Positions 19,008-41,976 of a stretch of 64,000 nt of DNA are shown in pieces; the first letter of the stretch is position 1, and each line of letters starts with the position of its first letter. The notes below the pieces were generated by a model. The model worked only from the letters and a program-made list of their open reading frames with translations, did no database searches and was not told the DNA's origin. The position numbers were made by a program, and so were the translations under genes. The stretch is from an uncultured Rhodospirillaceae bacterium. GTDB lineage: Bacteria > Pseudomonadota > Alphaproteobacteria > UBA9219. The DNA lies in contig CAYMGM010000002.1 of the NCBI GenBank assembly GCA_964390005.1, positions 72,796-136,795 of the forward strand, written 5' to 3'.

Positions 19008-19084
19008 GGACCCGTAGCTCAGCTGGATAGAGCGTCGCCCTCCGAAGGCGAAGGCCGTGTGTTCGAATCACATCGGGTCCGCCA
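19008..19084 (+). tRNA. tRNA-Arg (anticodon CCG)
   Basis: GGACCCG-TA-GCTC-AGCTGGATA-GAGC-G-TCGCC-CTCCGAA-GGCGA-AGGCC-GTGTG-TTCGAAT-CACAT-CGGGTCC-G-CCA. Closely resembles E. coli tRNA-Arg(CCG). Confidence 0.85.
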
Positions 19085-19086
19085 TA
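19035..19086. repeat. attL: 52-bp direct repeat (3' half of tRNA-Arg), identical to 29458..29509
   Basis: Exact 52/52 match read directly: TCGCCCTCCGAAGGCGAAGGCCGTGTGTTCGAATCACATCGGGTCCGCCATA. Confidence 0.85.
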
Positions 19087-19130
19087 TAAAACAACACGAT
19101 AGAGACATCTCCCGCATTAACAAACTATAC

Positions 19131-19149
19131 CTAGCTAGCAGATAGCTAG
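19131..19149. promoter_or_regulatory. palindrome CTAGCTA-GCAGA-TAGCTAG about 45 bp inside attL; related to the palindrome at 29324-29346
   Basis: Read directly. Both island termini carry AGCTAGC-based inverted repeats, which may be recombinase or accessory-factor binding sites. Confidence 0.4.
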
Positions 19150-19435
19150 TAACAAGTATGACTACGGCCCCTCCCCCTAAGCTATTTTGAGCTACTTTTG
19201 ATATTTTCCAAGCCCTCGCATATCATCTCCCACAATTTCCAAATAATTTTATATACGATGCCCCAAAATGGCAGCAACACGACCATTTTTAAGCAGCTTA
19301 ACATTTTATAAACCATTGATTTATCAATTACTTTCTTTCCCATCCAGTAAAATCAAAGAAACGAAAGACCCTCTTTCCGGGAGTTCATTGGTTAATAAAT
19401 AATGAAACGATTTTGAAAAAGCATAAGGAGGCGCT

Positions 19436-19837
19436 ATGTTGAACCCATCAAAAGGTAAGATCCTTTATCTGAAGCCGGGACGCATGAACGACACTTCGCC
19501 CATCGTTATCGACGGTAATGATTGCAACGGTCCTTTCGGGGAACGTATTGGGCGCGTCTATACGCTGCAAATGCCCGAAGGTTCTTATCGAAAAGTGGCT
19601 ATATATGGCGATGATCTGCCACCCGAATATGCGCATGTCCTTTTTGTGAAAAAAGGAGCTGAGGGAGAAAAGAACCCTCTATCTCACAGAGACCCCAATG
19701 AAAGCACAAAAGGTCTTCCCGCTCTTCTTGCCGCGTTTGATCAAGAAACGGCATATGGGGCCAAACCAAAGGGAAGAACATCTTCGTCAGTGCCACGGCG
19801 AGACTTTTTGGATCCCAAAGCAGCCTGCGGATCATAG
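19436..19837 (+). CDS. island cargo gene A: hypothetical protein (133 aa)
   Basis: AGGAGG Shine-Dalgarno. First gene of a tight 3-gene operon with 30- and 53-bp gaps. No motif recognised. Confidence 0.5.
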   Translation: MLNPSKGKILYLKPGRMNDTSPIVIDGNDCNGPFGERIGRVYTLQMPEGSYRKVAIYGDDLPPEYAHVLFVKKGAEGEKNPLSHRDPNESTKGLPALLAAFDQETAYGAKPKGRTSSSVPRRDFLDPKAACGS

Positions 19838-19867
19838 TTGCCACTGCGTTAAGCAAGGGAAGCAACT

Positions 19868-20752
19868 ATGGCTATACCCAAAAGGACGGCAGTGCTTGCC
19901 GCGACAGAGATTGGGCTTTGGTTGAAAGACCTGTCTCTTTGCGACCACTTTGAACTTGCCAGCAGCGAATGGCTTTTGCCCGAAGCGCGAGCCATCGGAA
20001 CATATTTAAAGATCTTGATGAAACGCAAGGGGGTGTGCCATCTCTTTGCCCCGGCTTCTCGGATTTTATGCTATTCCGGGCCTCGCAAATATGTGGATAG
20101 GGCCTGTCGAAAGGTAACAGTAGACCCCAATCACGACCGAGCCATCTATCTTGCCGATCACGGTCTTTACACATTGTTGGAACGCACAAGCATGGGCCAA
20201 CACTTGGACAATTATGTAAAACGAGAACCAGATCCCTTAAAAAGAACGCTTTATGGCTTTTTGAAAAGCATCTATGTCACAGAAAAAATAGATGTAAATA
20301 TTAGGGAAGAACAAAAGAAGCGAGCGCAAAAGCAAGGCGATCTTTTGATGGGGTTTGTGTCGGCGGCTTATATCTTTACATCACGGGATCATGTCGAAAC
20401 CGTGGTAGCCGGGGCCAGTTTTGAAAAAGTATTCTACCTGTTTGAGCTTCCCGCGCTGATGCTGAATCCAGAAATCAAAACGATCAACGCCGTATCGGCA
20501 GACCGTTTCAGAAAGATCTATTTTTCCGGCCATCCCAACGCCGCCTATGAAACATATAAAATGATTTGCGAAAGCGAAGTCGCCCTTTTCAAGAAAAGAG
20601 CCAAGGCTGCAGGAAAAGGGACGCCGTCTTGGCAACTGTGGAAAGAACAACACGCCGTTTGGCAGGCGGATTTGAGCCAATTTAGAGCTGTTAGCGTCTT
20701 TCGCGGCATTTTATCGAAAAAGGCGCTTTGCGCGGGGGCTGGGGTGGCTTGA
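19868..20752 (+). CDS. island cargo gene B: hypothetical protein (294 aa)
   Basis: Long ORF in AT-rich DNA. No motif recognised. Confidence 0.55.
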   Translation: MAIPKRTAVLAATEIGLWLKDLSLCDHFELASSEWLLPEARAIGTYLKILMKRKGVCHLFAPASRILCYSGPRKYVDRACRKVTVDPNHDRAIYLADHGLYTLLERTSMGQHLDNYVKREPDPLKRTLYGFLKSIYVTEKIDVNIREEQKKRAQKQGDLLMGFVSAAYIFTSRDHVETVVAGASFEKVFYLFELPALMLNPEIKTINAVSADRFRKIYFSGHPNAAYETYKMICESEVALFKKRAKAAGKGTPSWQLWKEQHAVWQADLSQFRAVSVFRGILSKKALCAGAGVA

Positions 20753-20805
20753 TCGGTTGCAAAGTCTTGTGGCATAGATCGCATGATATTTGATGATGAA
20801 TTGCT

Positions 20806-21612
20806 TTGACAGGTTTAAGCATGCGTAAGGTCTATTACGGAGAAGATGGCGATCTTGTCAATCTTCGAACCTTTGTCGAGAGACAAGGCCCCGATCCCAA
20901 TAAATGGACGCTCCAACCCATTTGCAAGGGCTGCGGGCGGGTCGTTACCCCCATCAATGTCAAAGTCGTCTTGGGGTTTAGCGAAGTTAGCGAAGAAGTC
21001 GCCCAAAGAGCCGGGGAAATGGGAAGGAAGCCTCAAGCCCCTCATTTCCGTCATAAAGATGGCGAAGGCGAAGGTTGCCCTTATGACGACAGAAAGGACC
21101 CTCTTTTCGCGCCATTTCATGAAAATGAATTCGATATAAGAGCGAGGGAGCGCGTGCGTGATGTGTTGTTCTCGCCAGAAGTAAAGGCAATGAACGGGGC
21201 CATGATGCGCATGCTGTATTGGCATTTGACCGGAAAGTGGGCAATCCCAGACGGAGACGGAAAAGCAATATGGCGCTTCGCTGAAAAGAGAGTTTGCAGC
21301 ATGTCCGTTCTTATTCAACGTCCGTGGATCTTTCCATTTGCTCAAATACTTTTTGCGGGGGCGCGGGATGCTTACTTTAAAGGCGTCAAAACGCCTTTGC
21401 AGTTTCTTCCCATGGGAAAACAGGCTTTCGAATTTCGAGATTTTGAAGGCAGAAAAAGACATGCCGAGCTTCCACAGGGCGTCGGCCTTTATTTCGCGAG
21501 CAACTTTGCTGAGTTTCGTTCGCGCGGACAGGACAGGCAACATGTCCGTTATGAACTCTCGGAACAAGGGGTCATCAAGATCGCAGAGGCTTCAAGAGCA
21601 ACGTTTGGATAA
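20806..21612 (+). CDS. island cargo gene C: hypothetical protein (268 aa) with a possible Cys/His zinc-ribbon-like motif
   Basis: C-x2-C (CKGCGR), a later HFRH and then CPYDD. No family recognised. Confidence 0.5.
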   Translation: MTGLSMRKVYYGEDGDLVNLRTFVERQGPDPNKWTLQPICKGCGRVVTPINVKVVLGFSEVSEEVAQRAGEMGRKPQAPHFRHKDGEGEGCPYDDRKDPLFAPFHENEFDIRARERVRDVLFSPEVKAMNGAMMRMLYWHLTGKWAIPDGDGKAIWRFAEKRVCSMSVLIQRPWIFPFAQILFAGARDAYFKGVKTPLQFLPMGKQAFEFRDFEGRKRHAELPQGVGLYFASNFAEFRSRGQDRQHVRYELSEQGVIKIAEASRATFG

Positions 21613-22032
21613 AGAAAAATTGCGCAAAGCATCATTATGCGTGCACCATACAAACCTATTCAAAATGTGTTTTTTCTTGGCACTTTTACAGTTTTCTTCC
21701 ACCGTCTTTGACAGAGTGAGGGATTTCCCATCTTCGGGGTATCGAAACCTCACCTGTAGCGGTTGTCTTGCTCTGCCTGTCCGAAAACAGCGCGTTTTCT
21801 AAAACAGACTCAGCACGACGAAGACGTTGGTTTTTTGGTCCAGCGCTGATTGACGTTGCCGAAACAAACGTTGCCCCCGGCTTATCGGCTGGAAGGCAGG
21901 CGCGGACATCCAAGCCTTGCGGCCAAAGGCCCTTGCATCGTCTACAGGCGATTTCGAACTCCCAGCCACCAGCGGGTGAACCCCGTTGGTTGGCTCTTGC
22001 GAAACTTACTTGCTTTTGCAAAGGAGAAGCCG

Positions 22033-22320
22033 ATGCTTTGTAGAAACGATGGATGGCTCTTTGTCGTCCCGCTCATGTGTTTTGTGTTCTTGGGGGCTCT
22101 CACAGCATATGCAGAGCAAAATGAGAAACAACCGCACCCGCCCGAACGATCAGCGTTCTTATTGCTAAACGTAGAAAATCAAATACCAGAAAACTGGCCA
22201 AGCCAAAGCCATCCTGAATACAGGGGATGCTGTTCACATCATGGCGGGGTCTGCGGTTGCAGTGGTGGAAGCGCCTCTTGCTGCGATGGCGCAATCAGCC
22301 CGACTTGCGGCTGCAATTAA
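22033..22320 (+). CDS. small secreted Cys-rich protein, DUF3761-like (CSHHGGV core motif)
   Basis: AAGGAGA Shine-Dalgarno 8 nt upstream of the ATG at 22033, so the ORF-track 5' extension is probably not translated. Signal peptide WLFVVPLMCFVFLGALTAYA. C-terminal GCCSHHGGVCGCSGGSASCCDGAISPTCGCN. Confidence 0.5.
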   Translation: MLCRNDGWLFVVPLMCFVFLGALTAYAEQNEKQPHPPERSAFLLLNVENQIPENWPSQSHPEYRGCCSHHGGVCGCSGGSASCCDGAISPTCGCN

Positions 22321-22334
22321 GCGAGGATGGCATT

Positions 22335-22847
22335 ATGAAGCGCATCCCGCGATTCCTTGCTCTGCTGTTTTGGGTTTCTGTTTTTTCATTACAGGTTTGT
22401 TATGCCGATAACGTTTCGTTGGAAGCAGCCTTTTCGCCAAGGCAGGGCGCAACCGAGCTTGTTGTAAAAACGATCAATGAAGCCCAAGAAAGCGTACGAT
22501 TGGCTGGGTATTCTTTTACTTCTCGGCGTGTTGCCGCGTCTCTTGTTGCCGCAATGCGACGCGGTATTGACGTTAAAGTCGTTCTGGATAAAAGCCAAGA
22601 TAACAACCGGAGCCTGGCTGGGCTACTGAAAGAAAACAACGTCCCGGTGCGGATCAATCGTCGTTATTCTATCATGCATAACAAGTTCATCGTCGTTGAT
22701 AACAAGGCTCTGGAACTTGGAAGCTTCAACTATTCTAGGGCTGCCGAGGAACGAAACGCCGAGAATGTATTGGTTATTCGCGGCGCACCTTCTATCGTCG
22801 CAGACTATGCCCGACAATGGGACAAGCTTTGGGGTGAGGCCGAGTAA
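22335..22847 (+). CDS. periplasmic phospholipase-D-family endonuclease (Nuc-like, single HKD motif)
   Basis: GAGGA Shine-Dalgarno. Signal peptide MKRIPRFLALLFWVSVFSLQVCYA. HKD motif MHNKFIVVDNKALELGSFNYS. Size and layout match plasmid pKM101 Nuc. Confidence 0.7.
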   Translation: MKRIPRFLALLFWVSVFSLQVCYADNVSLEAAFSPRQGATELVVKTINEAQESVRLAGYSFTSRRVAASLVAAMRRGIDVKVVLDKSQDNNRSLAGLLKENNVPVRINRRYSIMHNKFIVVDNKALELGSFNYSRAAEERNAENVLVIRGAPSIVADYARQWDKLWGEAE

Positions 22848-22920
22848 CCATACAAAAGAAAATATGGCCCTTGCATTGGTTTGAACACCAACAGTATTAT
22901 TAATCAACATTGGCTGCTAA

Positions 22921-23640
22921 ATGGAGGTTGTAAACATTTCTATGAGAAAAGTTTTCACATTGTCAGCCTTTGTCTTCATGCTTTGTTTTGGAACTTCTGC
23001 TTCTGGCTTAGTCACAGAAACAGGGCGAGTTATGCCATTCAAAATTCTATGTGCCATTCGAAACCCATTTTTTCAAAATAATATGGTGGCGGCGCAAATT
23101 TCCATAACCGTTGAAGGCGGTACACCCATCGATTGGATGGCGACAGGAATTTATGTTGCCGAGAATTCTATAATTAATGGTGTAACCTTTAGTGAGGTTG
23201 AGGTTTATGTGCCATCTCCTTGGGGGGACCAGCCCCCAACACTTTCCAAGCAGTTGGCAAATGTTTATTACGCACCAGATCCTGCGCATTCTCCATGGAA
23301 AGAACGGTGGCAAATCACAGCCGCAGATCATGCGGGAACTCTTGCTGATATTGAGTACCAAAAATTACAAAACGATCTCATTGAGAAATACGCTGGCCAA
23401 TACTCTGATCCTGATGTCCTTACAAAAAAAGTCGATGCAGAGGCAAAAAAAATCGTCACTCACAAATACAGACTTACACCTAAATGGAAACCCGACATGA
23501 ATTTGGGTTTAAAAGGAAAGCTACATGATCGAGCTGAAATTAATGTGGTGAGTTTAGGAAAAGATCAATATCCGCTATCCTTGATGGCAAAGTGTTTAAG
23601 AAACCCACCTGCAGCAAATACATGCCAGCAGTCTCGATAA
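22921..23640 (+). CDS. secreted hypothetical protein (alternative start MRKVF at 22942)
   Basis: Signal peptide MRKVFTLSAFVFMLCFGTSASG. Lowest-GC stretch in the window. Confidence 0.5.
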   Translation: MEVVNISMRKVFTLSAFVFMLCFGTSASGLVTETGRVMPFKILCAIRNPFFQNNMVAAQISITVEGGTPIDWMATGIYVAENSIINGVTFSEVEVYVPSPWGDQPPTLSKQLANVYYAPDPAHSPWKERWQITAADHAGTLADIEYQKLQNDLIEKYAGQYSDPDVLTKKVDAEAKKIVTHKYRLTPKWKPDMNLGLKGKLHDRAEINVVSLGKDQYPLSLMAKCLRNPPAANTCQQSR

Positions 23641-23645: not shown

Positions 23646-24194
23646 CTAAACAGTAGATGCTTCTAATCCCGTTGTTTCGCGATTAAAGGTTTGAAAGCCG
23701 CCTTTACCGCAATCGATCCGCGCCGTGTCGGTTGTGATGGCTATAACGCTTCGCCCCTCCAGCGCGGGAACAAGCCCCATAGCATCATAACGGATTTCTG
23801 GCGCGCGAGGATCGACGCCAAAGATGTCCGATGCTTTCCAGCCCAATGCCGCCGCTTTGTCGCCCCATTTATCCAAAAACAGTCCCCCATCATTTAATAA
23901 TTGTTCCCAGCGTTCGATTGCATAAGCCGAGGGGCGCGGCATAGTGCAGAGCGCCGCAAACCCTTCGGACCATTCTTTGGGTACACCGTTCGCCTCAATA
24001 AGCGCTGCACGTTCTTCCCAAGCGTCAGGATCAAGTTCTAAAGAAACGGGCGTTATTTTTTCCGCCATCTGTTGTTCAGAATGTTCAGAACGTTCAAAAC
24101 AACCCAACACGTCCTCATTCTGAACAAATTGAACATTTTGAACAGGCGCGATCACATGTTGGCTTTTCTCAAGCATTGCAAACCAGCGGCTCAT
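23646..24194 (-). CDS. hypothetical protein downstream of the primase; N-terminus uncertain, start may be at 24068
   Basis: Its start overlaps the primase stop. The first 40 codons coincide with the iteron cluster, so the true start may be the internal Met MAEKITPV. Confidence 0.4.
   Translation of the reverse strand: MSRWFAMLEKSQHVIAPVQNVQFVQNEDVLGCFERSEHSEQQMAEKITPVSLELDPDAWEERAALIEANGVPKEWSEGFAALCTMPRPSAYAIERWEQLLNDGGLFLDKWGDKAAALGWKASDIFGVDPRAPEIRYDAMGLVPALEGRSVIAITTDTARIDCGKGGFQTFNRETTGLEASTV
24073..24144. promoter_or_regulatory. iteron cluster: 3 direct 9-bp repeats TGTTCA(G/A)AA, an 18-bp spacer, then 3 inverted copies; putative replication origin for the adjacent primase
   Basis: Read directly: tgttcagaa tgttcagaa cgttcaaaa ... 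ttctgaaca aattgaaca ttttgaaca. As I recall, the phage P4 ori and crr are built from TGTTCACC octamers bound by the alpha protein. Confidence 0.45.
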
Positions 24195-26593
24195 GATAAG
24201 CCCCCTGCCACCATGGGGTTGACTTCCCAGTCACTGCGTTTACGCCCAATAAGAGCGAGCCCTGCGCGCCGGATCCAGCCATCACGTTCAAGAATGTTAA
24301 AAGCGGCTTGTCTTGGGGCCTTCTTTCGCAAGTGACCAAAACCTGACGTTTGATACAAGGTTCTCTCGTTAATCAAGTCGGCTTTATTGTTGACGATAAA
24401 GCGCATGATCGAAACGGCATCTGTTTCAGCTTCGTCAACGGCTAGCCCATGGAGAACCCGATCAAACATCGCCTCCAGATAATCAAGATAGGTACAGGCA
24501 TGCGCCATAGAGGCAGCGGAAATATCATGCGGTTCGGATGCCGAGGAATCAATGGCCCAGCGAAGATACTCTATCGTCAGAGCAAGGCGAAGAGCGCGGG
24601 CGGGCGTCTTCCCGTGCCATCCTGCGGCCAATCCTTTGGCGTCTCTTGCCTTCTCAATCGCTTCATGGCGGGCCGTTTCAAACAAGCGCATAGCTTCGTC
24701 TGATAAGCGGACAATCCGAGGCGAGACGCTTCCATCTTTGTCTTCATCCATTTGAAGACCACGTAAACGCCGCACCAACACCAACAGAAAGTCGCGTCTT
24801 TTTTGACTTTCGATATGATCTTCTTCTCTCAACGGGGCATAGGGTGCCAGCCGTGGCCAAACGTAACAAAAACGGGCGGAAAGCCCATCATCTGCCCCAG
24901 CCATTGCTTCGCGCAATTTGTCGGGCTGAAGGCCGCCCAGAATGGCAAGCGAAGCGTAAGGCACAACAACGGGCTTCCCCGCATTCTTGACAAGATCAAC
25001 GCTAAAACGCCCACCGTTCCAACTTTCCAGATAAAAACTCCGATCTGCCCCTGCGCCGCTGTAACGGTCAAAACTACCAAGCCAGCCCGAAAGTTCATCC
25101 CGCAAAAGCAACAGGCCTTTTGGATTTCGGCTTAATATGTTTGTCGTTTCCTGCGTTGTCGATTCACAAAGTAGAACGCGGGGTTCCACGGGGGCCTCAG
25201 GGATTTGCGCCTCTGGCGGCATCGGTGGCGCAGGAAAGCCATCTTTTGCTGCCTTTGCAATATCGCTTTCCCAGAGCTTGCGCTTCGCGTTGGCAAAAGC
25301 GCATTTCGTCTCATGGTCGATCATTTGTGTTTGCCATGCCGGACTCGCGTCTGCCTCCAGCGTTTTGCAAACTTCCGTAAAAACCTGTTGGGATGGTGTT
25401 TTGCCTCCGCTTGGCGGTGAAACAATAGCACCCCAAATATGAGGCGGTTCAACCCAATCCCCTGTTGCTGCAATGCGCCGAGCATTACCTAAGCAAGCGC
25501 TGGCAACTGTCAGAAGGTTCAGGGCAACGAAATCCACAGGACAAGCCTTTGCCACGGCCATATCTTGGCACCACGCCCACAAGGCGGGAGGCAAACTGTC
25601 CGGGTCAAAGGTCGGTGGGGCTATATCTTCATTCCGATATAAGGACAGGTCGGGTTCGGGCCAAGGAAGCCCAGAGCTATTGGTCATTGGCATTTTTTCT
25701 TCCACGCGAATGTTTTTAAGCTGGCTCTTGACGGCTTCCAATCCTTCCAAAATGTGAAGGTCGTTAAAGTCAGTCGGGCGGGTGGTTGTGTCTTTGAATG
25801 TCGGGAAAACGACGCCGCAGCCAAACTTTGAAGCCATGGCCTCGGCTTTCGTGCGTCCCGCGTTACCCTTTTCGGGCTTCCATCGATCATCGTCGCCCGC
25901 AAGGACAAGACAGAGCTTGGGATTCCGTTCACGCAAAGCAGTAACGACAGGTTCAAGATTCCCGGCATCAAAGGCCACGATGACAGGTTGTCCTGTTGCC
26001 ATATAAAGGCTGGCCCCTGTGGCGTAGCCCTCTGCCACATAGGCAAAGGTAATATCAGACAAGACCGCCGCACCGATCAGGTGAAAGCAACCTTTCTTCC
26101 GCGCCCCTTCTTGAAAAAGCTTACGCCCGTCTTTGTCGATGGTTTGAATGTTCCAAAGCTTTCCATCAACATCACGCAAGGGAAGGATTAGGGTTTCCGG
26201 TGCGTTGACCCCTTGCTTCAATCCATAAGCTTTGACACGCTTTACAGAAAGATATGGCGTTGTCTGAGCCTCTGGAAGCTTTTCCCAATACTTTGTCAGC
26301 CGTGCCGCGGTCGCTTGTTGTTGGTCCCGTTCTTGGTTTTCTCGCCGCCGTCTTTCTTGTTCGATTTGCTCGGCCTGTCTTTGTTGTTCGGATTGGGTTA
26401 ACCGCGCCCCGCCGTTAGACCATTTTCCGTTAACCCCGCCCGCCCAATCGCCAAAAGCGCCGTGATCGCCATAAAAGACATACCACGCATCCGGGGCTTT
26501 GCGTCCGTTGGGTCTAAAGCGATGGATTTTTCCATCTGGAACCAACCCTCCCGGTGGCGCTCCGATCCCTGCCGCTAACATGGCCTCAAGCAT
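24191..26593 (-). CDS. P4-alpha-like DNA primase/helicase (N-terminal zinc-binding/primase region, TOPRIM, C-terminal DUF3987-like helicase-type domain)
   Basis: TOPRIM-like AYVAEGYATGASLYMATGQPVIVAFDAGNL. P-loop-like SPPSGGKT. Length 800 aa, close to P4 alpha at 777 aa. Confidence 0.65.
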   Translation of the reverse strand: MLEAMLAAGIGAPPGGLVPDGKIHRFRPNGRKAPDAWYVFYGDHGAFGDWAGGVNGKWSNGGARLTQSEQQRQAEQIEQERRRRENQERDQQQATAARLTKYWEKLPEAQTTPYLSVKRVKAYGLKQGVNAPETLILPLRDVDGKLWNIQTIDKDGRKLFQEGARKKGCFHLIGAAVLSDITFAYVAEGYATGASLYMATGQPVIVAFDAGNLEPVVTALRERNPKLCLVLAGDDDRWKPEKGNAGRTKAEAMASKFGCGVVFPTFKDTTTRPTDFNDLHILEGLEAVKSQLKNIRVEEKMPMTNSSGLPWPEPDLSLYRNEDIAPPTFDPDSLPPALWAWCQDMAVAKACPVDFVALNLLTVASACLGNARRIAATGDWVEPPHIWGAIVSPPSGGKTPSQQVFTEVCKTLEADASPAWQTQMIDHETKCAFANAKRKLWESDIAKAAKDGFPAPPMPPEAQIPEAPVEPRVLLCESTTQETTNILSRNPKGLLLLRDELSGWLGSFDRYSGAGADRSFYLESWNGGRFSVDLVKNAGKPVVVPYASLAILGGLQPDKLREAMAGADDGLSARFCYVWPRLAPYAPLREEDHIESQKRRDFLLVLVRRLRGLQMDEDKDGSVSPRIVRLSDEAMRLFETARHEAIEKARDAKGLAAGWHGKTPARALRLALTIEYLRWAIDSSASEPHDISAASMAHACTYLDYLEAMFDRVLHGLAVDEAETDAVSIMRFIVNNKADLINERTLYQTSGFGHLRKKAPRQAAFNILERDGWIRRAGLALIGRKRSDWEVNPMVAGGLS

Positions 26594-26728: not shown

Positions 26729-26971
26729 TCATTTCTGGCCTCCCGTCTCAGAAGTGCTGCATCGTGGCGAGCTTAGGCGGTTTTCAGCCCAATCCAAGGC
26801 ATCGCCCCAACGATAGAGAACTCTTGAGCCAAAGGTTCTGAAGATCGGCCCCCCGCCCCGGCTTGCTTTCGTGGCTAATGTCTTGGCCTTAACCGGAAAC
26901 CCACAAGCTGTTAAGGCGGCAGCCGTAGCTTCACGGGTTAAAAAATCGTCTGGATTATTTAGTGTTTTCAT
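26729..26971 (-). CDS. alpA: AlpA-family phage transcriptional regulator/excisionase-like HTH protein
   Basis: An 80-aa protein with LTREATAAALTACGFPVKAKTLATKASRGGGPIFRTFGSRVLYRWGDALDW, typical of AlpA/Xis-type winged-helix regulators. Confidence 0.55.
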   Translation of the reverse strand: MKTLNNPDDFLTREATAAALTACGFPVKAKTLATKASRGGGPIFRTFGSRVLYRWGDALDWAENRLSSPRCSTSETGGQK

Positions 26972-27273: not shown

Positions 27274-28011
27274 CTAACGCGCCTTCTTTGCCGTGGACAG
27301 GGCTCTTGCGACAGAACTTTCTGCATACCTCTTGATTGAACCATCGCTTTTGGGTCTCCCGGTGCCTTCCATGATCGTTTTTATTTGCTTCCGAACAGGC
27401 ATTCTTAAAAAATCAACATTATTGAGAGCCTGTTCTATTGCATCTCTAAGGTTGAGTTGTCCCTGATCCCCTCTTTGTTTGTTACGCCCGCTTCCTTTCG
27501 ACCTCCCCTCATCCATTCGCAAACGTTGTTTTGCATATGCCGCAGCGACGATAAGATTACCGATGGATCCATCCAACTCTCCCCGTTCATCTTTTCTTTC
27601 AGGAAAAAAGTCCCAAATACTTACCATTCCATCTATTTTGTAAAAATCTGCCATTTCCATCAAAGCAAAGGCGTATTCATTGTCAAAACAATTACGAACC
27701 ACGTTTATCAGCTTTCCAAAAGGTTCCATTAAAAAACGTTCTTCGTCCGTAAGTGTCGGATCGATCATAACGTCGCCCCACCTCCTATCATCTGTTGAAT
27801 CCACAAATGTGCGGACCACTCGTATATCGGGAAGATTTGAATCTTCAATCTTTTCATACAGGGCCGGATTTTTCTTCGCGACGAACTCAATGTGAGAGAT
27901 GAAGCAGCTTTCGACCTCATTTTCGATCCAATCCGCGACTTGCCTGCCAATATTTTCATAAAACTCTTTCTCGCCCGCTTTCTTCGCCTTCTGTTCTGTC
28001 TTTCGTGTCAT
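27274..28011 (-). CDS. hypothetical protein (245 aa), translationally coupled downstream of int
   Basis: A 4-nt overlap with the int stop. AT-rich. No motif recognised. Confidence 0.5.
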   Translation of the reverse strand: MTRKTEQKAKKAGEKEFYENIGRQVADWIENEVESCFISHIEFVAKKNPALYEKIEDSNLPDIRVVRTFVDSTDDRRWGDVMIDPTLTDEERFLMEPFGKLINVVRNCFDNEYAFALMEMADFYKIDGMVSIWDFFPERKDERGELDGSIGNLIVAAAYAKQRLRMDEGRSKGSGRNKQRGDQGQLNLRDAIEQALNNVDFLRMPVRKQIKTIMEGTGRPKSDGSIKRYAESSVARALSTAKKAR

Positions 28012-29300
28012 TTTCTTCCCCTTTGACGCATTGGAAGTATGTCTGCGGAATAATGAAAAGCCCCCATCATCTCTCCAACCTTATTCGCGATCACATCTGC
28101 GGCTGCAAGCAAAACCATATCTGCCGAATGAATATATCGCGATGTTATTGAATGCCCTTTATGCCCGACAAGAGCGGCAATCGTGGGCTCGGAATAACCT
28201 AGGTCGGCGGCCAGAGAAGCAAAAGAGTGGCGCAAAACGTGTGGCGTAATATCAGTATTAAGTTCACCCATTTTGGCAATCTTGGCCCAGAATTTTGGAA
28301 ACCCAACCATCGTGCCACGGCCTCGCGAAGCCGGAAAAACAAGATCATTTCCATCCCGCATCTTAATTCCCTTAAGAACATCGCATGCGGCCATCGAAAG
28401 TGGACGAATAGATAGGCCTGTTTTGGTATCTTCTAATGTTGCGGTTCTGTGCGCAAAGTCTATTTCTTTCCATTTAAGATTTAAGACCTCTCCACTGCGC
28501 CAACCCGTCAAAGCGAGCAAGCGCACAGCACACAAAGCTGGCGGCCAAACATCGTTCAATTCGGCTTTTCTTAACGCCGTTCCCAGCGCGTTAAATTCAT
28601 CTTCAGATAGACGTCTTTGTCGCTTTCCGTCTGCATAACGAATAACCCCATGAACCGGATTATCCAGACGCAAGCCGAGCTTAATCGCATAGGCAAATAT
28701 GGCACCTAAAAGACCAACCGTTCGGCTGGCCGCACCCTTGCCACCACGCACATTTGAAAGAGCATGTTTCTTTTCGCCTTTAATCTTACATGCCGTCTTT
28801 CCTTCGGCCACCTTGTGCATAAACGCTTCAATATCGTTTTGCGTAACTGCAGCAACCTTCATTTTCCCTAAAAGTGGCCTAATATGTCTTTCAATGCGCC
28901 CCTTATCAGATATAAGGGTACTCGCCTTCTTGGGAATCTTACGCCGCGTTAATAGCCTCCCGGCTTCAGCATCTTTCCAGTATTTGTCACATAGGTCAGC
29001 AACGGTTGGAGCTTTGCGTGCTTCCCCTTTTTCTGTGGCGGGATCTAGCCCCTTGGAAACATCCCCCAAAAGCTCACGCGCCTTTTCTCGCGCCATATCC
29101 GGTGTCCAAGGCGCACCATGGCGACCTATCGTGAACCAACGCTGACGACCTTCTTTGGTTCTATAAAAAAGAACGTACGAAACGGCATCCCCTTTCTGAC
29201 GCCGCGCTCCAAATCCCTTTACGGTCGTATCCCAAATAATATCTCCAGCACCTAAGGAGCGTATCTCTCGCAATCCGATCTTTATTGTTTTTGTCGTCAC
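28008..29300 (-). CDS. int: tyrosine site-specific integrase (P4-type, with N-terminal arm-binding domain)
   Basis: C-terminal HVLRHSFASLAADLGYSEPTIAALVGHKGHSITSRYIH gives the R-H-R-Y catalytic tetrad. GTG start. Lies adjacent to attR. Confidence 0.85.
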   Translation of the reverse strand: MTTKTIKIGLREIRSLGAGDIIWDTTVKGFGARRQKGDAVSYVLFYRTKEGRQRWFTIGRHGAPWTPDMAREKARELLGDVSKGLDPATEKGEARKAPTVADLCDKYWKDAEAGRLLTRRKIPKKASTLISDKGRIERHIRPLLGKMKVAAVTQNDIEAFMHKVAEGKTACKIKGEKKHALSNVRGGKGAASRTVGLLGAIFAYAIKLGLRLDNPVHGVIRYADGKRQRRLSEDEFNALGTALRKAELNDVWPPALCAVRLLALTGWRSGEVLNLKWKEIDFAHRTATLEDTKTGLSIRPLSMAACDVLKGIKMRDGNDLVFPASRGRGTMVGFPKFWAKIAKMGELNTDITPHVLRHSFASLAADLGYSEPTIAALVGHKGHSITSRYIHSADMVLLAAADVIANKVGEMMGAFHYSADILPMRQRGRK

Positions 29301-29457: not shown

Positions 29458-29509
29458 TCGCCCTCCGAAGGCGAAGGCCGTGTGTTCGAATCACATCGGG
29501 TCCGCCATA
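29458..29509. repeat. attR: 52-bp direct repeat copy of the tRNA-Arg 3' half
   Basis: Identical to 19035..19086. Confidence 0.85.
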
Positions 29510-29558
29510 GAAGCTATTGTTCGCCCTCATCAGGCATGCGATGCGTTTTGAGCCTGCC

Positions 29559-30356
29559 TTACGAACATGTCCACGAAAAATAGACCCATCCGCAGCCGCT
29601 GTTACAGCAGCCGGACCATGTGTTGTAATACTGCGTGTCGGCGGCAATCGCCCCGTAATTAAACGACGTCAAGCAGCCACAAGTATTGCCGATGCTCAAT
29701 GAAAAATTGGGGACGCCATATGTTGCATTCGTATTCACACACGAAGGCGTCACCGTCGGCGATGCGTTCGACCCCGAACAACTCCACATCGGTTGAATCC
29801 ACATGCGCCACTCAGACGTTCCGCATGCGCCGCTTCCAATTTCTGAATACTGCGAAACACCATTATTCAGCCTTTGGGCTGGTGCTGTCCAATCACCGCC
29901 GCAACACACCCCAGCGCGAATATTGATTGTTACATAGCCAAAGGATCCATCGGCTTTTTTACAAATATTCTCACGCAAGGGAAATGAACTGCCGCTTTGC
30001 CCCATCGTCTGCCAAGACGTGCCATTACAGGCTTCAAAGGCCGTCCCGTTCCACTGAAGAACCCCAGCGTGTGAGGCATCACAGGCCACCGAGCTATTTC
30101 CAAGCGACAAAGAGGCGCGCTTCCATACGCCGCCCGAACATTGAAAGATTGTATCCCAATCCACACCGCTAGCGCCTTCTGAAGAACAGGCTGTGCCATA
30201 GTCATGTTTTTCATTATCAACTTTGGCCGCGCGCGCTGGCGACAGGCCGCACAAAAAGATAAGACAAAGAAAGACAGCCCACAGATGTTTCTTGCTTTGA
30301 CGATACAAAAGAAGATAAGGCATCATGATAAACCACCTCAAAGGACGGCGTCCCAT
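29559..30356 (-). CDS. secreted Cys/Trp/Gly-rich repeat protein of unknown function (start probably MMPYLLLY)
   Basis: Signal peptide. At least four internal about 27-aa repeats with the pattern C-x5-G-x2-W-x6-C-x-G-x-W. Ends CCNSGCGWVYFSWTCS. Lies immediately outside attR. Confidence 0.5.
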   Translation of the reverse strand: MGRRPLRWFIMMPYLLLYRQSKKHLWAVFLCLIFLCGLSPARAAKVDNEKHDYGTACSSEGASGVDWDTIFQCSGGVWKRASLSLGNSSVACDASHAGVLQWNGTAFEACNGTSWQTMGQSGSSFPLRENICKKADGSFGYVTINIRAGVCCGGDWTAPAQRLNNGVSQYSEIGSGACGTSEWRMWIQPMWSCSGSNASPTVTPSCVNTNATYGVPNFSLSIGNTCGCLTSFNYGAIAADTQYYNTWSGCCNSGCGWVYFSWTCS

Positions 30357-34811: not shown

Positions 34812-35552
34812 TTATGTTGTGTCTGGGAAAAATAAGTCCCCTGCTGCTATAGCTCTTTCTGCGCCGTCCGCCAACCTTAAGATCAGGTGTCCTTCCTCAT
34901 CCAGGCGAACAAATTGGCCCTGAACGACCTCGTCCGGCAGGCGGGCCGTCATTTCGCCCGTTTTGGCCCGGTCGCGCCAAGCCGCGCGAATCGCGCCAAA
35001 GCCTTCGGTTTGAAGCATTTGATCCCAAAAGGCAAAAGCCTTGAGAAAACAGGCCACAACGGCGTCAAGCGACGCCTCGCCCCCCTCGCCCGCCAGCGAG
35101 GTGGTGGGGTACAAAGCCTGCGCCGGGCACGAGACGACATTGATCCCAACCCCAACGACAAGCCACGGAATGTTTTTCTCTTCGTCAGGGGCACCCGTTT
35201 CCAGCAAAAGGCCGCTGATTTTCTTGCCGCCAACCAAAACATCATTGGGCCACTTAATGACAACGTCGGCGGCAGGCAAAAAGGCCTTGACCGTATCAAA
35301 GACCGCCAGCGAAGCGACAAAGCTATAAGCCCCCGCCGAGCGCACTGTCACGGCAGGCCGCAGCAATAACGACACATACATATTGCCGCGCGGCGACGAC
35401 CAAACGCGCCCTTGCCTTCCGCGCCCGGCTGTTTGCTCAAGCGCCTGAATGACAAGGCCGGATTCTTCGCCGGTCTGCCCGGCCATGCGCGCCAAATCGT
35501 TTGTGCTGGTGACAACGTCTTTGACTTGAAGACGGAAGCTATCGGGTATCAT
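34812..35552 (-). CDS. birA: biotin--[acetyl-CoA-carboxylase] ligase (catalytic domain only, no N-terminal HTH)
   Basis: GRGRQGRVW and KWPNDVLVGGKKISGLLLE motifs. Confidence 0.75.
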   Translation of the reverse strand: MIPDSFRLQVKDVVTSTNDLARMAGQTGEESGLVIQALEQTAGRGRQGRVWSSPRGNMYVSLLLRPAVTVRSAGAYSFVASLAVFDTVKAFLPAADVVIKWPNDVLVGGKKISGLLLETGAPDEEKNIPWLVVGVGINVVSCPAQALYPTTSLAGEGGEASLDAVVACFLKAFAFWDQMLQTEGFGAIRAAWRDRAKTGEMTARLPDEVVQGQFVRLDEEGHLILRLADGAERAIAAGDLFFPDTT

Positions 35553-35574
35553 TTAAAACCTTCGTTTCTTGAGA

Positions 35575-37011
35575 TTATCCGCCCCACAAGCCTTGCGCAG
35601 CCAAAGCCGCCTTATCGGTCAACCAGCCGGGGAAGACAACAAGGCAGGCAATAGCGACGGCGGCCCCTGTCGTCAACAAACGCAGCGACCATTCGGGAAC
35701 TTGGTCGAGAACATCGTCTGTCCGTTCGTCGAAGTAAAGGGCTTTCACGACCCTGAGGTAATAGCCCGCGGCAAGAACGCTGGCCAAAACCCCGGCCAAG
35801 GCGAGCGCCCAAAGGCCTTTTTGAACGGCTGCGGCAAAAACGAAATATTTGCCGAAAAAACCCGCCAGCGGCGGAACCCCCGCCAGCGAAAACATGAAAA
35901 AAGCCATCAGCGCCGCAAAATAGGGATGCGATTCCGACAAACCGGCCAGATCGGCAAGACCATCGACCATCTGCCCATCGCGGCGCAGCGCATGCAAAAT
36001 GCCGAAAGCGCCCAGCGTCGCCAGCGTATAAAGCGCAACATAGATCAACAAAGCGCCCACCCCATCGGGGCCATAGGCGATCAAGCCGACAAGAGCCGTC
36101 CCCATATTGGTGATCGCGCTATAGGCCAACAGCCGTTTAAGGCGCGTCTGTACCAGACCGCCAATCGCGCCCAAGAACATCGACGCCACGGCAAGGACCA
36201 ATAAAACTTGCTGCCAAGCGCTTTCGATCCCCCCAAAGATCTGAACGAAAACGCGGACGAAAAGCGCGACAGCCGCGACCTTGGCAGCCGAAGCCAAAAA
36301 GAACGAAACGCTGGTCGGCGCTTTTTCATAAACGTCGGGCGTCCACATATGAAACGGCACCAGCGACAGTTTGAAGGCAAGCCCGGCCAACACAAAGCCA
36401 AAACCGAAATAGGCCCCCAGCGGCAAGTGGGCTTTACCATCCAACGCCGCCGCCAAAAGCGAAAAGCGCGTACCGCCCGCAAAGCCATAGAGCAGCGACA
36501 AACCATAAAGCAGCATGCCAGACGACAGCGCGCCCAGCACAAAATATTTAAGCCCGGCTTCGCTGCCTGAAATATGATCGCGCCGAAAAGTCACAAGGAT
36601 GTAAAGCGCAAGGCTTTGCATCTCAAGACCGACATAAAGAACGGTCAGATCCGCCGCCGAGGCCATCAACATCATGCCCAGCGCGCTGAAAAGGATCAAT
36701 GCCGGATATTCGGCGCGCGCTGTCCGTATTTTTTGCAAATAAGGAACAGCCATCAAAACGGCAGCGCTGCCCGCCCCCAAAATCAAGGTTTTGGCAAAAC
36801 GACCAAAGGGATCGGAAATATAAAGCCCGTCAAAAGCCCCCAAGACATGATCTTGCAGGCAGACCAAAACCAAAGCCCCCAAAAGCGCCAGCGCCGAGAG
36901 GCGCGACGTCCAAACAAACGCATCAAGCCGCCGCACCGTACCGAACAGCAACAAAAGGCAGGCGCAAACGGCTAAAAAAATCTCGGGAACGGCAGCGGTC
37001 AAATCCGTCAC
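35575..37011 (-). CDS. nuoN: NADH-quinone oxidoreductase subunit N
   Basis: Polytopic antiporter-like subunit, 478 aa, last gene of the nuo operon. Confidence 0.85.
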   Translation of the reverse strand: MTDLTAAVPEIFLAVCACLLLLFGTVRRLDAFVWTSRLSALALLGALVLVCLQDHVLGAFDGLYISDPFGRFAKTLILGAGSAAVLMAVPYLQKIRTARAEYPALILFSALGMMLMASAADLTVLYVGLEMQSLALYILVTFRRDHISGSEAGLKYFVLGALSSGMLLYGLSLLYGFAGGTRFSLLAAALDGKAHLPLGAYFGFGFVLAGLAFKLSLVPFHMWTPDVYEKAPTSVSFFLASAAKVAAVALFVRVFVQIFGGIESAWQQVLLVLAVASMFLGAIGGLVQTRLKRLLAYSAITNMGTALVGLIAYGPDGVGALLIYVALYTLATLGAFGILHALRRDGQMVDGLADLAGLSESHPYFAALMAFFMFSLAGVPPLAGFFGKYFVFAAAVQKGLWALALAGVLASVLAAGYYLRVVKALYFDERTDDVLDQVPEWSLRLLTTGAAVAIACLVVFPGWLTDKAALAAQGLWGG

Positions 37012-38540
37012 GGCAGGCTCTCCCCTTCTTCCAAAACGTCGGGCGATGGCGCGCCCGGATACAGATTAATGCTTTCGATAATCTGAGCCGACGGCCCCGC
37101 AAAAAGCTTTTGAACCCCAGCGGGCGCAACGCCGATGCCGATGATCAAAACAACCAGCGGCAACAAGGCAATCCCTTCGCGCAGCCGAAGGTCCGGCATC
37201 GCCGCCACGCCTTCGCCCATCGCAGGGCCATAGAACAAGCGGCCATAAAGGCGCAGCATATAAGCCGCCCCGAGGATCAGCCCCAGCGCCGCGACAGCCG
37301 TCGCATGCGGACTGGCGCGCCACGCGCCCGCCAACGAAAGAAACTCGCCTAAAAAGCCGCTGGTCCCCGGCAGGCCCATCGCCCCTAAGGAGAACAGCAT
37401 AAAGAACACGGCAAAGCGCGGCATCACGCGCACCACCGCGCCATAGCGGGCAATCTCGCGCGTGTGCAAACGGTCATACAAAACGCCCGCGCCAAGAAAC
37501 AGCGCCGCCGACACAAGCCCGTGCGAGACCATGACAAACATCGCGCCTTGCAAGCCTTCGGCTGTGCCTGAAAAGATCCCCAGCAAGGCATAGCCCATAT
37601 GGGCGACCGACGAATAAGCGATCAAGCGTTTGAAATCGGTCTGCATCAACGCAACCAGAGACGTATAGACGATCCCGATAACAGCCAGATCAATCATCAG
37701 CGGCGCAAAAGACTGGCTGGCTTCGGGCAACATTTGTAAGCCGACCCGAATAAAACCATAGCCGCCCATTTTTAAAAGCAAGGCCGCCAAGACGACCGAC
37801 CCCGCCGTTGGCGCTTCGCCATGCGCATAAGGCAGCCAGGTATGAAACGGCCATAGCGGCGTTTTGACAGCAAAGGACGCAAAAAAACCAAGCCACAAAA
37901 GCATCGACAAACGCGGCGCGAACTTATGCCCGATCATCGCCGTCATATCGGTCGTTCCGACTTCATGCGCCATCACGATGATGGCGATCAGCATGAAGAC
38001 CGAGCCTAAAAACGTATAAAGGAAGAACTTGATCGCCGCATAGATGCGCTTTTCGCCGCCCCATAGCCCAATCATGATGAACATGGGGATCAGCGCGCCT
38101 TCGAAAAAGATATAGAATAAAACAAAGTCCAGCGACGTAAAGACGCCCAGAAGCATCGTCTCGATCAGCAGCAAAAGGCTCATAAACAACGGCACGCGCT
38201 TTTGCACGGAAAAGCCGCCCAAAATGGCAAGCGGCGTGATCAAAGCCGTCAGCAGCACAAGGGTCAGCGAGATCCCGTCAATGCCCTTGAAATAGTAAAT
38301 ATGGAAAGACGGGATCCAAAGAGCCTTTTCAATCCACTGAAAGCCTGTTGTCACGCCGTGATCAAAATGAGCCCAAGCGCACAAAGACAGCCCCAGCGTC
38401 GCCAGCGATGTCGCAAGCGCAATCCAACGCGCCAAAGAAACGCGCTTTTCTTCTTCGGTCCACGAAAGAAGACCGATCAGCGCAACGCCAAGCAAAGGCA
38501 AAAAAGTCAAAAGACTTAAAAGAGGCCAAGGCGCGTTCAT
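37008..38540 (-). CDS. nuoM: NADH-quinone oxidoreductase subunit M
   Basis: Antiporter-like membrane subunit of 510 aa, placed by operon order. Confidence 0.85.
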   Translation of the reverse strand: MNAPWPLLSLLTFLPLLGVALIGLLSWTEEEKRVSLARWIALATSLATLGLSLCAWAHFDHGVTTGFQWIEKALWIPSFHIYYFKGIDGISLTLVLLTALITPLAILGGFSVQKRVPLFMSLLLLIETMLLGVFTSLDFVLFYIFFEGALIPMFIMIGLWGGEKRIYAAIKFFLYTFLGSVFMLIAIIVMAHEVGTTDMTAMIGHKFAPRLSMLLWLGFFASFAVKTPLWPFHTWLPYAHGEAPTAGSVVLAALLLKMGGYGFIRVGLQMLPEASQSFAPLMIDLAVIGIVYTSLVALMQTDFKRLIAYSSVAHMGYALLGIFSGTAEGLQGAMFVMVSHGLVSAALFLGAGVLYDRLHTREIARYGAVVRVMPRFAVFFMLFSLGAMGLPGTSGFLGEFLSLAGAWRASPHATAVAALGLILGAAYMLRLYGRLFYGPAMGEGVAAMPDLRLREGIALLPLVVLIIGIGVAPAGVQKLFAGPSAQIIESINLYPGAPSPDVLEEGESLP

Positions 38541-38544
38541 GGGT

Positions 38545-40521: not shown

Positions 40522-40524
40522 GGC

Positions 40525-40848
40525 TTAGACCTCGCGGTGCGGGGCATCGGGAATAGCGACATTGCCGCGAACGCGGAACGTCACCACCAAAATGGCCAAG
40601 CCGATGGCGGCTTCTGCCGCGGCAATGGTCAAAACGATCAACGCGAAAGCCTGCCCCGTCAAGTTTTGCAAACTTCCGGCAAAGGAAACAAAGTTCAAAT
40701 TGACGGCCAAAAGCATCATTTCAATCGACATCAAAATGACGATAACATTTTTGCGATTGATAAAAATGCCGACAATCGCAATCGTAAAAAGCATGGAAGC
40801 GACAATCAGAAAGGGCGCAAGCCCGATGGTTTGCATGGCTTGTGTCAT
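40525..40848 (-). CDS. nuoK: NADH-quinone oxidoreductase subunit K
   Basis: A 107-aa protein with three TM helices, placed by operon order. Confidence 0.8.
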
Positions 40849-41465
40849 AAGGCCCCCTCGCCGCTATCGACCTTGATCAGTTCGACGACATCTTCTGGAC
40901 GCCGCGCCAATTGCGCGCGAACATTCTGCCGACGCGTATCTTTGCGGCCCCGGTGGGTCAGCACAATCGCGCCGACCGTCGCAATCAACAAAACGACGCC
41001 CGATCCCAAAAACGGCAGCATCAAATCCGTGTACAAAATACCGCCCAAAGCGCGCGTATTATCCATAACCGCCAGCCCCTGAACCGGCGTGCTGCTGGCG
41101 ACCGCGCTGGGCTGCCACGCCAAAGCGACCAACGTCATTTCAAAAAGAAGCAAAGCGCCAATACCAATGCCCAGCGGCAGATATTTTAAATAGCCGCGCC
41201 GCATTTCATAGAAATTGACATCCAGCATCATGACGACAAACAAAAACAAAACAGCCACGGCCCCGCCATACACAATGACAAGGATCATGGCGACAAACGT
41301 CGCGCCCGTCATCACGAACAGCCCCGCGGCGTTAAAAAAGCAAACGATCAGCCAAAGCATGGCATGAACGGGATTGCGTACTGCCACGACCAACGTCGCG
41401 GCCGATAACATGACGCCCGAAAAGAAATAGAAAAGGGCCTGGGTTAAAAGTTGTTCCATCGACAT
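40845..41465 (-). CDS. nuoJ: NADH-quinone oxidoreductase subunit J
   Basis: A 206-aa membrane subunit. Confidence 0.8.
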
Positions 41466-41481
41466 GTTCTTTCCCCTCCCC

Positions 41482-41970
41482 TTACCTGTATTTTCCGTCG
41501 GCCTTCAGGCAAGCGGCGACAGCCGCCTCCCATCTATCGCCGTTTTGCAACAGACGCGCCTTGTCATAAAAAAGATCGGCATGCGTTTCCGCCACATATT
41601 CAAAGTTCGGCGTTTCGACAATGGCCTCGACTGGGCAAACTTCTTGGCAATAGCCGCAAAAGATGCATTTGCTCATATCGATGTCATAGCGTGTCGTCCG
41701 GCGCGATCCATCGGGCGCAGGCGCGGCTTCGATCGTGATGGCTTGCGCGGGGCAAATGGCTTCGCACATTTTGCAAGCGATGCAACGCTCGGTCCCGTCG
41801 TCATAACGGCGCAGCGCATGCTCGCCGCGAAAGCGTGGGCTGATCGCCGCCTTTTCATACGGATAGTTGATCGTAACCTTGGGACGGAACATCGCCCGAA
41901 AGGTCGCCCAAAATCCGGCAATCAGATCAAGCCCCAGCCAATAACGAAAACGGGATACGATGCGCATCAA
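41482..41970 (-). CDS. nuoI: NADH-quinone oxidoreductase subunit I (2x[4Fe-4S] ferredoxin)
   Basis: Two CxxCxxCxxxCP motifs: [12 protein letters not shown] and [12 protein letters not shown]. Confidence 0.9.
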
Positions 41971-41976
41971 GCCCCC

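Follow-up and report, generated by a model that had tools for sequence, protein, structure and literature searches.

In a 64,000-nucleotide (nt) stretch of DNA from an uncultured Rhodospirillaceae bacterium (the window, in whose positions coordinates are given unless a contig is named), an island integrated at a tRNA-Arg gene carries three small genes, A, B and C, which a preliminary description had proposed as one undescribed defence or accessory system. Here we report that the conserved functional unit is a two-gene A-B cassette. Gene B encodes a divergent protein that we are highly confident is an enzyme of the ADP-ribosylcyclase (ARC)/CD38 fold with a competent active site, and gene A encodes its fast-evolving partner. 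We tentatively propose that the pair is a toxin and its neutraliser, acting through consumption of nicotinamide adenine dinucleotide and its phosphate, NAD(P)+, and that it travels on integrative and conjugative elements (ICEs) as part of their cargo.

The three genes lie on the plus strand near the tRNA-Arg-proximal, integrase-distal end of the island. Gene A (19436–19837; 133 amino acids, aa) starts at an ATG with AAGGAGG 7 nt upstream, gene B (19868–20752) encodes 294 aa and gene C (20821–21612) encodes 263 aa. An alternative TTG start at 20806 would lengthen C to 268 aa; the ATG at 20821 is more likely, because an identical protein in public collections has the 263-aa length. The intergenic gaps are 30 nt between A and B and 53 nt (TTG start) or 68 nt (ATG start) between B and C, so the arrangement first described was borne out, with the longer B-C gap if the ATG is used. 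So was the low GC content: A, B and C have a GC of 0.47–0.50 and a third-position GC (GC3) of 0.43–0.51, against 0.56–0.60 and 0.65–0.67 in flanking housekeeping genes, with aroB and RNase J at a GC of 0.56–0.58. All three are real genes and not chance open reading frames (ORFs), each having relatives: A at 98%, 83% and ~36% identity, B with 46 and C at 40–43% identity. A 250-aa ORF antisense to C (20815–21567) was rejected as a shadow ORF. Scans of A, B and C as single sequences against Pfam, PADLOC, PHROGs and NCBIfam gave no match, and PDB sequence searches with A, C or single-sequence B returned nothing meaningful. With zero PADLOC hits, the three genes fall into no described defence family. 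The earlier view of the proteins as entirely unrecognisable stands for such single-sequence scans and fails for B once profiles and structure are used.

An exhaustive phmmer search with B across 1.84 billion representatives recovered 46 relatives, five of them (besides B) at 39–45% identity and most 260–308 aa long; a word-indexed search returned B alone, which exhaustive HMMER showed to be a false negative. A degenerate DNA pattern for the family motif GxVETxVCGA, run against metagenomes, gave 120 loci, two of which held true B homologues. A profile built from 34 sequences of the family has as its best PDB match 9ro8, an ‘ADP-ribosylcyclase toxin’ of Pantoea ananatis (E=4e-4), and picks up the Aplysia cyclase and 9ouf (Tac1) as weak matches. 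The AlphaFold2 (AF2) model of B (predicted local distance difference test, pLDDT, 93; predicted template modelling score, pTM, 0.89) shows a two-lobed Rossmannoid ARC fold, and the top 50 Foldseek matches to it are nearly all ARC/CD38/RDTND. The ARC fold is grouped with the TIR NADases in the TIR-DrHyd-SLOG Rossmannoid class. The preliminary description had listed no nuclease, ATPase, Sir2, TIR or HEPN signature in the three proteins; that statement is overtaken by B, an ARC-fold protein of the class shared with TIR NADases and with its catalytic residues intact. Counting against simple ARC membership, B bears ~60 extra N-terminal residues, predicted to be helical, and two long C-terminal helices, giving 294 aa where the core has ~130–150 aa.

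The residues conserved in the family are those expected of an active enzyme. In the 34-sequence alignment (B numbering), the motif LYSGP is kept as Y69 in 29 sequences, S70 in 33, G71 in all 34 and P72 in 32; N88 (in NHxRA) is found in 33/34; and position 105, in the motif (D/E)-x-T-x-x-G (E105-x-T107-x-x-G110 in B), is acidic in 32/34. S165 (S-x-x-F), G182 (G-x-V-E-T-x-V-C-G-A), E193 (ELP) and N207 are each invariant, and C234 and E237 are each present in 33/34. HMMER alignment to the Aplysia cyclase places the family D/E-x-T-x-x-G on LEDTLPG, the S-x-x-F...G-x-V block on SSSYAHSAEGEV and the invariant ELP on ELPNL, so that E193 corresponds to E179, the residue changed in PDB entry 1r0s (‘Glu179Ala mutant’). 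An hhalign comparison with human CD38, which serves as a check of the register only, pairs E105 with E146, S165 with S193, E193 with E226 and M161 with W189. Specifically, the catalytic Glu is E193 in B, E226 in CD38, E179 in the Aplysia enzyme and E573 in Tac1; the second acidic residue is E105 in B, E146 in CD38 and E516 in Tac1; and the active-site Ser is S165 in B and S193 in CD38. The conserved residues of the B family thereby reproduce the signature given for Tox-ARC domains, ‘[ST] [DE], S, E’ (PMC3482391). Mutagenesis of Tac1 showed that the Glu equivalent to E226 is essential and that the Glu equivalent to E146 drives hydrolysis of the cyclic intermediate (PMC12356396). Because B keeps both acidic residues and the active-site Ser, we predict that it splits nicotinamide from ribose in NAD(P)+, with cyclic ADP-ribose (cADPR) as intermediate or product.

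The second acidic position bears on what B might release. It is Asp in 27 of the 34 family members and Glu in B, and an Asp could favour release of a cyclic product. Together with the use of NAD-derived cyclic signals in bacterial immunity (PMC9503650) and the precedent of Nac1, a non-toxic standalone ARC enzyme that releases cADPR (PMC12356396), this could be read as a signalling module, in which B is a cyclase making cADPR or a related messenger from NAD, A is a regulator, sensor or effector responding to that messenger, and depletion of NAD plays no part. We consider this unlikely. Nac1 has an Ala at the second acidic position, a signal peptide and no conserved partner, whereas B has E105, a partner gene and no recognised signal peptide; moreover, A contains no recognisable effector or sensor domain.

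To establish which genes travel with B, we took a census of 10 other distinct loci with a B homologue (29–45% identity, including very distant members). A co-oriented ORF lies directly upstream of the B homologue in 10/10 of them (129–274 aa; in one it is cut by the contig start), and the gap between the two is 18–32 nt in the nine loci where it can be measured. Because this upstream partner is present in 10/10 loci and C in 0/10, the unit is A-B and C stands outside it. The settings of the pair are diverse. The partner has 152 aa (gap 28 nt) in L007, with a MobA relaxase and a serine recombinase; 134 aa (gap 30 nt) in L008–L010, directly after a tyrosine integrase; at least 101 aa, cut by the contig start (gap 27 nt), in L011, where a helix-turn-helix (HTH) gene of the HTH_3 family lies downstream on the opposite strand; 138 aa (gap 24 nt) in L014, in a chromosomal variable spot; and 129 aa (gap 32 nt) in L015, where HTH_17, PrimPol/PriCT and integrase genes give the same layout as in the window. 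It has 206 aa (gap 25 nt) in L016–L019, at the end of an ICE with a VirB/Trb type IV secretion system (T4SS), before AlpA and integrase genes; 143 aa (gap 29 nt) in L121; 178 aa in L075, adjacent to a B gene cut by the contig end; and 233 aa (gap 18 nt) in L140, after lepB-rnc-era. In L012/L013 (gap 29 nt), the partner of 274 aa is a tandem A-like duplication of two ~130-aa repeats (L012 2690–3514; 130 aa on the short contig L013), and the module stands beside a HipA-HTH toxin-antitoxin pair.

The partner evolves quickly, yet many of the upstream proteins can be shown to be related to A. A word-indexed search returned relatives of A at 98% and 83% identity, the latter, P0006, on a 130-kb NCBI contig; a locus scan of the genome collection found no relative of A. 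Six upstream ORFs are linked to A by sequence, those of L007, L012, L013, L014, L015 and L121, the L013 stretch being 99.9% identical to that of L012. A matches the L007 partner at E=3e-9, and a local jackhmmer search over all ORFs of the fetched loci recovered L007, L012, L013, L014 and L015 (E from 1e-12 to 1e-33). In addition, the L014 partner matches that of L121, and the L011 partner matches that of L075. Several partners share a C-terminus (...KKAACG(S), ...KKAANG, ...RKACG or ...KKTLG), and the A of the window ends in ...KAACGS. In L007, L011, L012 and L014, the short spacer running from the stop codon of A to the start of B shows unusual conservation of its nucleotides (CTAATCGTC ... 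AGAGAYGAC GATGGC), although the proteins on either side are only 30–45% identical; the window’s own spacer (19820–19870) is more diverged. Such conservation of DNA between diverged proteins suggests a translational-coupling or regulatory element.

Most B-homologue loci are integrative or conjugative elements; mobilisable elements also carry the pair, and some copies occupy variable chromosomal spots. The carriers include the tRNA island of the window, the integrase-AlpA-PrimPol island of L015, the integrase-adjacent L008, the relaxase and serine-recombinase element of L007, the T4SS ICE of L016/L017 and the locus adjoining HipBA in L012. The preliminary description had asked whether homologues of all three genes co-occur, always inside integrative islands, and had named a consistent lack of co-localisation as a refuting result. 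A and B do co-occur, mostly on mobile elements, with some loci in chromosomal spots; C is never beside a B homologue, so that the refuting result applies to C and not to A-B. The sequencing runs with contigs of the window’s island (L005/L006, 100% identical) also hold a distant B paralogue, P0041, of 302 aa with a partner of 206 aa (L017 7455–8363 and L018 626–1534, in SRR9878565 and SRR9860463; also L016 and L019). Its ICE has a host-like GC of 0.58 and the gene order TrbL, VirB8, CagX, TrbI, DUF2274, DUF736, HTH_17, partner, B paralogue, AlpA, integrase. Because the same runs hold both the window’s island and this ICE, one organism or community may carry two modules.

A location on ICEs and integrative islands, near the integrase or attachment (att) end, would also suit a role in counter-defence or establishment, in which B destroys NAD-derived immune messengers such as the cADPR isomers of Thoeris/TIR systems, or alters NAD metabolism, so that the element can enter or persist more easily, and A is a cofactor or chaperone. 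CD38-type enzymes hydrolyse cADPR by means of the second Glu (PMC12356396), ARC domains occur sporadically, in roles that are unclear, in phages and giant viruses (PMC9503650), and the best viral structural match to B is a Marseillevirus protein. However, a viral scan found no relative of B, tblastn of B against plasmids and phages gave no match, and the literature searched describes no anti-defence ARC enzyme. This role would also leave the strictly conserved, fast-evolving partner unexplained, and we regard it as distinctly improbable.

We found no Pfam trafficking domain (LXG, PAAR, Rhs, VgrG, CdiA or TPS) in B or its 33 relatives and recognised no signal peptide on reading the N-terminus of B; B is therefore presumably intracellular. 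All experimentally described ARC toxins are secreted, and the literature mentions ARC effectors in intracellular bacteria (PMC9503650). About a third of the B homologues (~11/34) end in a Pro-rich basic tail (...GLH, ...LH or ...SH), and one paralogue directly follows a T4SS gene set (L016/L017). One could thus imagine B as an effector exported to other cells, for example by a T4SS or conjugation, through its basic tail, with A as its chaperone or immunity protein. This is very unlikely: besides the missing trafficking domain, the B of the window lacks the tail motif, and most carriers, including the window’s island, L015, L008, L014 and L140, have no secretion system. The tails of the B and A families may signal transfer, mark the proteins for processing or act as contact elements. 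An intracellular enzyme with a neutralising partner remains the reading we prefer.

Gene C has a different distribution. A word-indexed search of 5.8 billion clustered proteins found three full-length metagenomic relatives at 40–43% identity, in two clusters. The four aligned sequences share C35-x2-C38, P-H75-F-R-H78-K, C86-P-Y-D-D and the motif WIFPFAQILFAG as invariant features, so that the Cys/His zinc-ribbon-like patch noted at first sight (C35, C38, H75, H78 and C86) is confirmed as conserved. Elsewhere, C relatives are found only behind genes for an XRE regulator and a GNAT acetyltransferase, and the contig is low in GC: in L001 (8660–10786; also in L002–L004), an XRE/HTH_3 gene (222 aa), a GNAT gene (210 aa) and the C homologue (261 aa) are co-oriented with gaps of 10 and 29 nt, and all four contigs end 107 nt past the C gene. 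This trio may represent a module of the GNAT toxin type whose third gene is C. Locus scans of viral, genome and metagenome collections and tblastn against plasmids and phages gave no further relative of C. The AF2 model from four sequences has a pLDDT of 38 and no usable fold, and the C profile found nothing meaningful in the PDB. The PHFRHK...CPYDD stretch has a 22-residue, sub-threshold match to DUF7830 (E 0.12–0.23), a domain mentioned by no paper in the literature searched. The CxxC...HFxH...C pattern may resemble the N-terminal zinc ribbon of CoiA, which we take as a lead only.

The proposal that all three genes make up a single anti-phage system, undescribed and of three components, rests on their co-orientation, their short gaps, their shared status as low-GC island cargo and the lack of a terminator-like site between B and C, the first such site coming after C at 21816–21829. 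Because no such site separates the two genes, C may be co-transcribed with A-B here. Furthermore, three metagenome samples (SRR26541438, SRR26541439 and SRR26541446) contain homologues of both B (P0010) and C (P0004). In these samples, however, C lies on a separate contig, after the XRE and GNAT genes, and the contig with the B homologue (L008–L010) bears an integrase and does not overlap it. No C homologue was found in any of the 10 other B-homologue loci, and C has only its two other clusters of relatives among all the clustered proteins searched. The neighbourhood data thus largely refute the three-gene system, to which we assign a very small probability, and we treat C as an independently distributed neighbouring cargo gene and not as part of the A-B module.

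These observations lead us to propose, at a little less than even probability, that A-B is an NAD(P)+-consuming toxin and neutraliser, serving as an addiction or abortive-infection cassette. Hydrolysis of NAD+ and NADP+ by bacterial ARC enzymes is rapid enough to halt growth, and bacteria that make ARC toxins depend on a cognate immunity protein, which sits in the active-site cleft (PMC12356396, PMC12605009). An intracellular, competent ARC enzyme would likewise need a neutraliser, and because A is the only conserved candidate, we infer that A acts as an antitoxin or immunity protein that binds B and holds it inactive. In this model, loss or displacement of A would free B, the NAD(P)+ pool would collapse and the cell would arrest. 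The trigger could be that the element is lost, that host synthesis (translation) is shut off or that a phage factor intervenes; the outcome could be stabilisation of the element (addiction) or abortive infection.

Several findings weigh against this proposal. Standalone ‘Nac’ ARC enzymes are non-toxic and make cADPR (PMC12356396), so an ARC fold does not by itself prove a toxin. The immunity genes of ARC toxins sit downstream (PMC12356396), whereas the partner of B sits upstream. Pfam found in A and its relatives no DNA-binding domain typical of type II antitoxins (HTH, ribbon-helix-helix, RHH, or AbrB), and Imm74-type immunity is rejected for A, which has no Pfam match, Imm74 included, even at E<=10. 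Both stacking Trp residues of CD38 are absent from B, with Y69 in place of W125 and M161 in place of W189 (family-wide, Y stands at position 69 in 29/34 sequences, and at position 161 there is M in 24/34 or W in 5/34), and the substrate of B could therefore differ. Pfam PF02267 (Rib_hydrolayse) does not match B and matches one of 34 relatives at E=0.18, and PADLOC and NCBIfam do not cover the family, whose 34 relatives give scattered single-member PADLOC hits at E>=0.0018. The family is also rare, at 47 clusters at 50% identity among the representatives searched, and many B and A homologues carry conserved C-terminal tails, which might instead indicate export or transfer.

The stronger claim, that A-B is the first ARC-fold toxin-antitoxin or abortive-infection family, intracellular, borne on mobile elements and with a CD38/ARC NADase checked by a novel, rapidly evolving partner, is more doubtful still, and we put it at roughly one chance in three; the literature searched describes no ARC-fold toxin-antitoxin or defence system. 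If it is true, the CD38 fold would join TIR and SIR2 among the NAD-based immune and addiction effectors of bacteria. Not until 2025 were bacterial CD38-fold enzymes characterised, and then solely as secreted polymorphic toxins or orphan ‘non-toxic’ cyclases; a clade that the Pfam ARC model fails to detect would bring the fold into a third setting, that of modules for conflict inside the cell, addiction or immunity. Should A neutralise B, the two genes would offer a compact ~1.3-kb two-gene system for studying how ARC NADases are switched in cells, as well as a new partner (inhibitor) fold for CD38-type enzymes. More broadly, A-B bears on whether cADPR-type chemistry serves bacterial immunity beyond TIR domains.

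The island that carries the cassette is delimited by a repeat. A 55-nt direct repeat (54/55 identical) bounds 10.4 kb: attL (19035–19089) covers the 3′ part of the tRNA-Arg(CCG) gene (19008–19084, plus strand; ARAGORN, Rfam tRNA 67.5 bits), which is the integration target, and attR (29458–29512) is the second copy, a partial tRNA 3′ end. Together with a tyrosine integrase of 430 aa (28008–29300, minus strand; Arm-DNA-bind_3, Phage_int_M and Phage_integrase by Pfam, and PHROGs), this bears out the original picture of a tRNA-Arg-integrated island with its cargo distal to the integrase. The replication gene (24191–26593, minus strand) encodes an 800-aa primase/helicase with Toprim and DUF3987 domains (PF13362, PF13148; PHROG 2249 DNA primase, 1.9e-73). 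Of the integrase/AlpA/primase core first described, the integrase and primase are therefore present; at the place given for AlpA there is an 80-aa ORF (26729–26971, minus strand) with no Pfam match at E<=0.1. Pfam and PHROGs recognised none of the capsid-redirection and helper-exploitation genes of P4 (psu, sid, delta, cos), so the label ‘P4-like’ fits the integrase and primase only. The tRNA is the sole Rfam match over the island, and megablast of the island against plasmids gave no match.

Between attL and A is an AT-rich non-coding leader of 346 bp (19090–19435, plus strand) that includes the Shine-Dalgarno sequence AAGGAGG. Sigma-70-like hexamers at 19198–19226 and 19413–19440 are consensus matches only, and a promoter scan of the region found promoter-like matches to be no commoner than expected by chance. 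A perfect 7-bp inverted repeat, CTAGCTA-gcaga-TAGCTAG (19131–19149), lies in the attL-proximal arm ~45 nt past the tRNA end; it may be bound by a recombinase or excisionase, or else act as a terminator.

Downstream of C, on the plus strand (22033–23640), are three genes with hydrophobic, signal-peptide-like N-termini that together look like a separate exported accessory cluster. The first (22033–22320) encodes a putatively secreted protein of 95 aa with a Cys-rich C-terminus (CCSHHGGVCGCSGG...CCDG...CGCN, also rendered as GCCSHHGGVCGCSGGSASCCDGAISPTCGCN) and no Pfam match. The second (22335–22847) encodes a PLD/Nuc-like nuclease of 170 aa (PF13091, 1e-24) with weak matches to NucT and DrmC, under their cut-offs, and the third (22921–23640) a 239-aa protein of no known family (Pfam, PADLOC, PHROGs, NCBIfam). 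On the minus strand are an acidic 182-aa ORF (23646–24194), whose start overlaps the primase stop, and a 245-aa ORF (27274–28011), whose start overlaps the end of the integrase gene. For the ORFs of 245, 239 and 182 aa, neither PHROGs nor Pfam gave a significant match; the one PHROG hit below threshold (E=0.02) has no assigned function.

Two features lie outside the island. Just beyond attR, a 265-aa Cys/Gly-rich ORF (29559–30356, minus strand) has a signal-peptide-like N-terminus, an intermediate local GC of ~0.50 and no Pfam, PHROG, PADLOC or NCBIfam match. At 35000–43000, the plus strand has a very strong AT skew of 0.34–0.44 over ~8 kb, which we attribute to minus-strand genes for hydrophobic membrane proteins; the one ORF read there (35575–37011, minus strand) resembles NuoN.

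Among known systems, the closest to A-B are Tac1-Tci1 of Streptococcus parasanguinis (9ouf) and ARCtox-ARCimm of Pantoea ananatis (9ro8), which are also the best sequence and structure matches to B. With these B shares the catalytic fold, the catalytic Glu, the second acidic residue, the active-site Ser, an adjacent small partner gene and the expected chemistry, cleavage of NAD(P)+, which for B is predicted. The differences are in architecture and setting. Tac1 and ARCtox have trafficking domains, whereas B has no LXG, PAAR, Rhs or CdiA domain and no recognisable signal peptide. According to one survey, ARC domains occur exclusively alongside secretion-targeting domains. Their partner is encoded downstream, whereas A lies upstream and is unrelated to Imm74; the genes downstream of B homologues differ at every locus (C, MobA, HTH_3, AlpA and others). 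Their loci are secretion-system loci and those of A-B are integrative or conjugative elements, and existing models detect Tac1 and ARCtox whereas B is too diverged for PF02267. Nac1 resembles B in being a standalone ARC-fold protein outside polymorphic-toxin loci, but it has a signal peptide, an Ala at the second acidic position and no partner gene, where B has E105 and an obligate partner. Compared with the metazoan enzymes CD38, BST-1/CD157 and the Aplysia cyclase, B lacks the context of a disulphide-rich ectodomain, has both stacking Trp residues replaced, and is bacterial, presumably cytoplasmic and accompanied by a partner gene.

Other bacterial systems would resemble A-B in function and not in fold. 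Unlike the TIR and SIR2 defence systems (Thoeris ThsA/ThsB, DSR2, SpbK), A-B has no PADLOC match and no recognisable sensor domain. The RES-Xre, MbcT-MbcA and NatT-NatR pairs differ in having toxins of the ART/RES fold rather than the ARC Rossmannoid, and antitoxins with HTH or other domains, of which A has none. Like A-B, they have the gene for the small partner ahead of that for the NAD-consuming enzyme, are often on mobile elements and would share its predicted outcome, depletion of NAD(P)+ leading to growth arrest. Finally, A-B shares with type II toxin-antitoxin systems the arrangement as an adjacent, co-oriented pair kept together across unrelated genomes and mobile elements.

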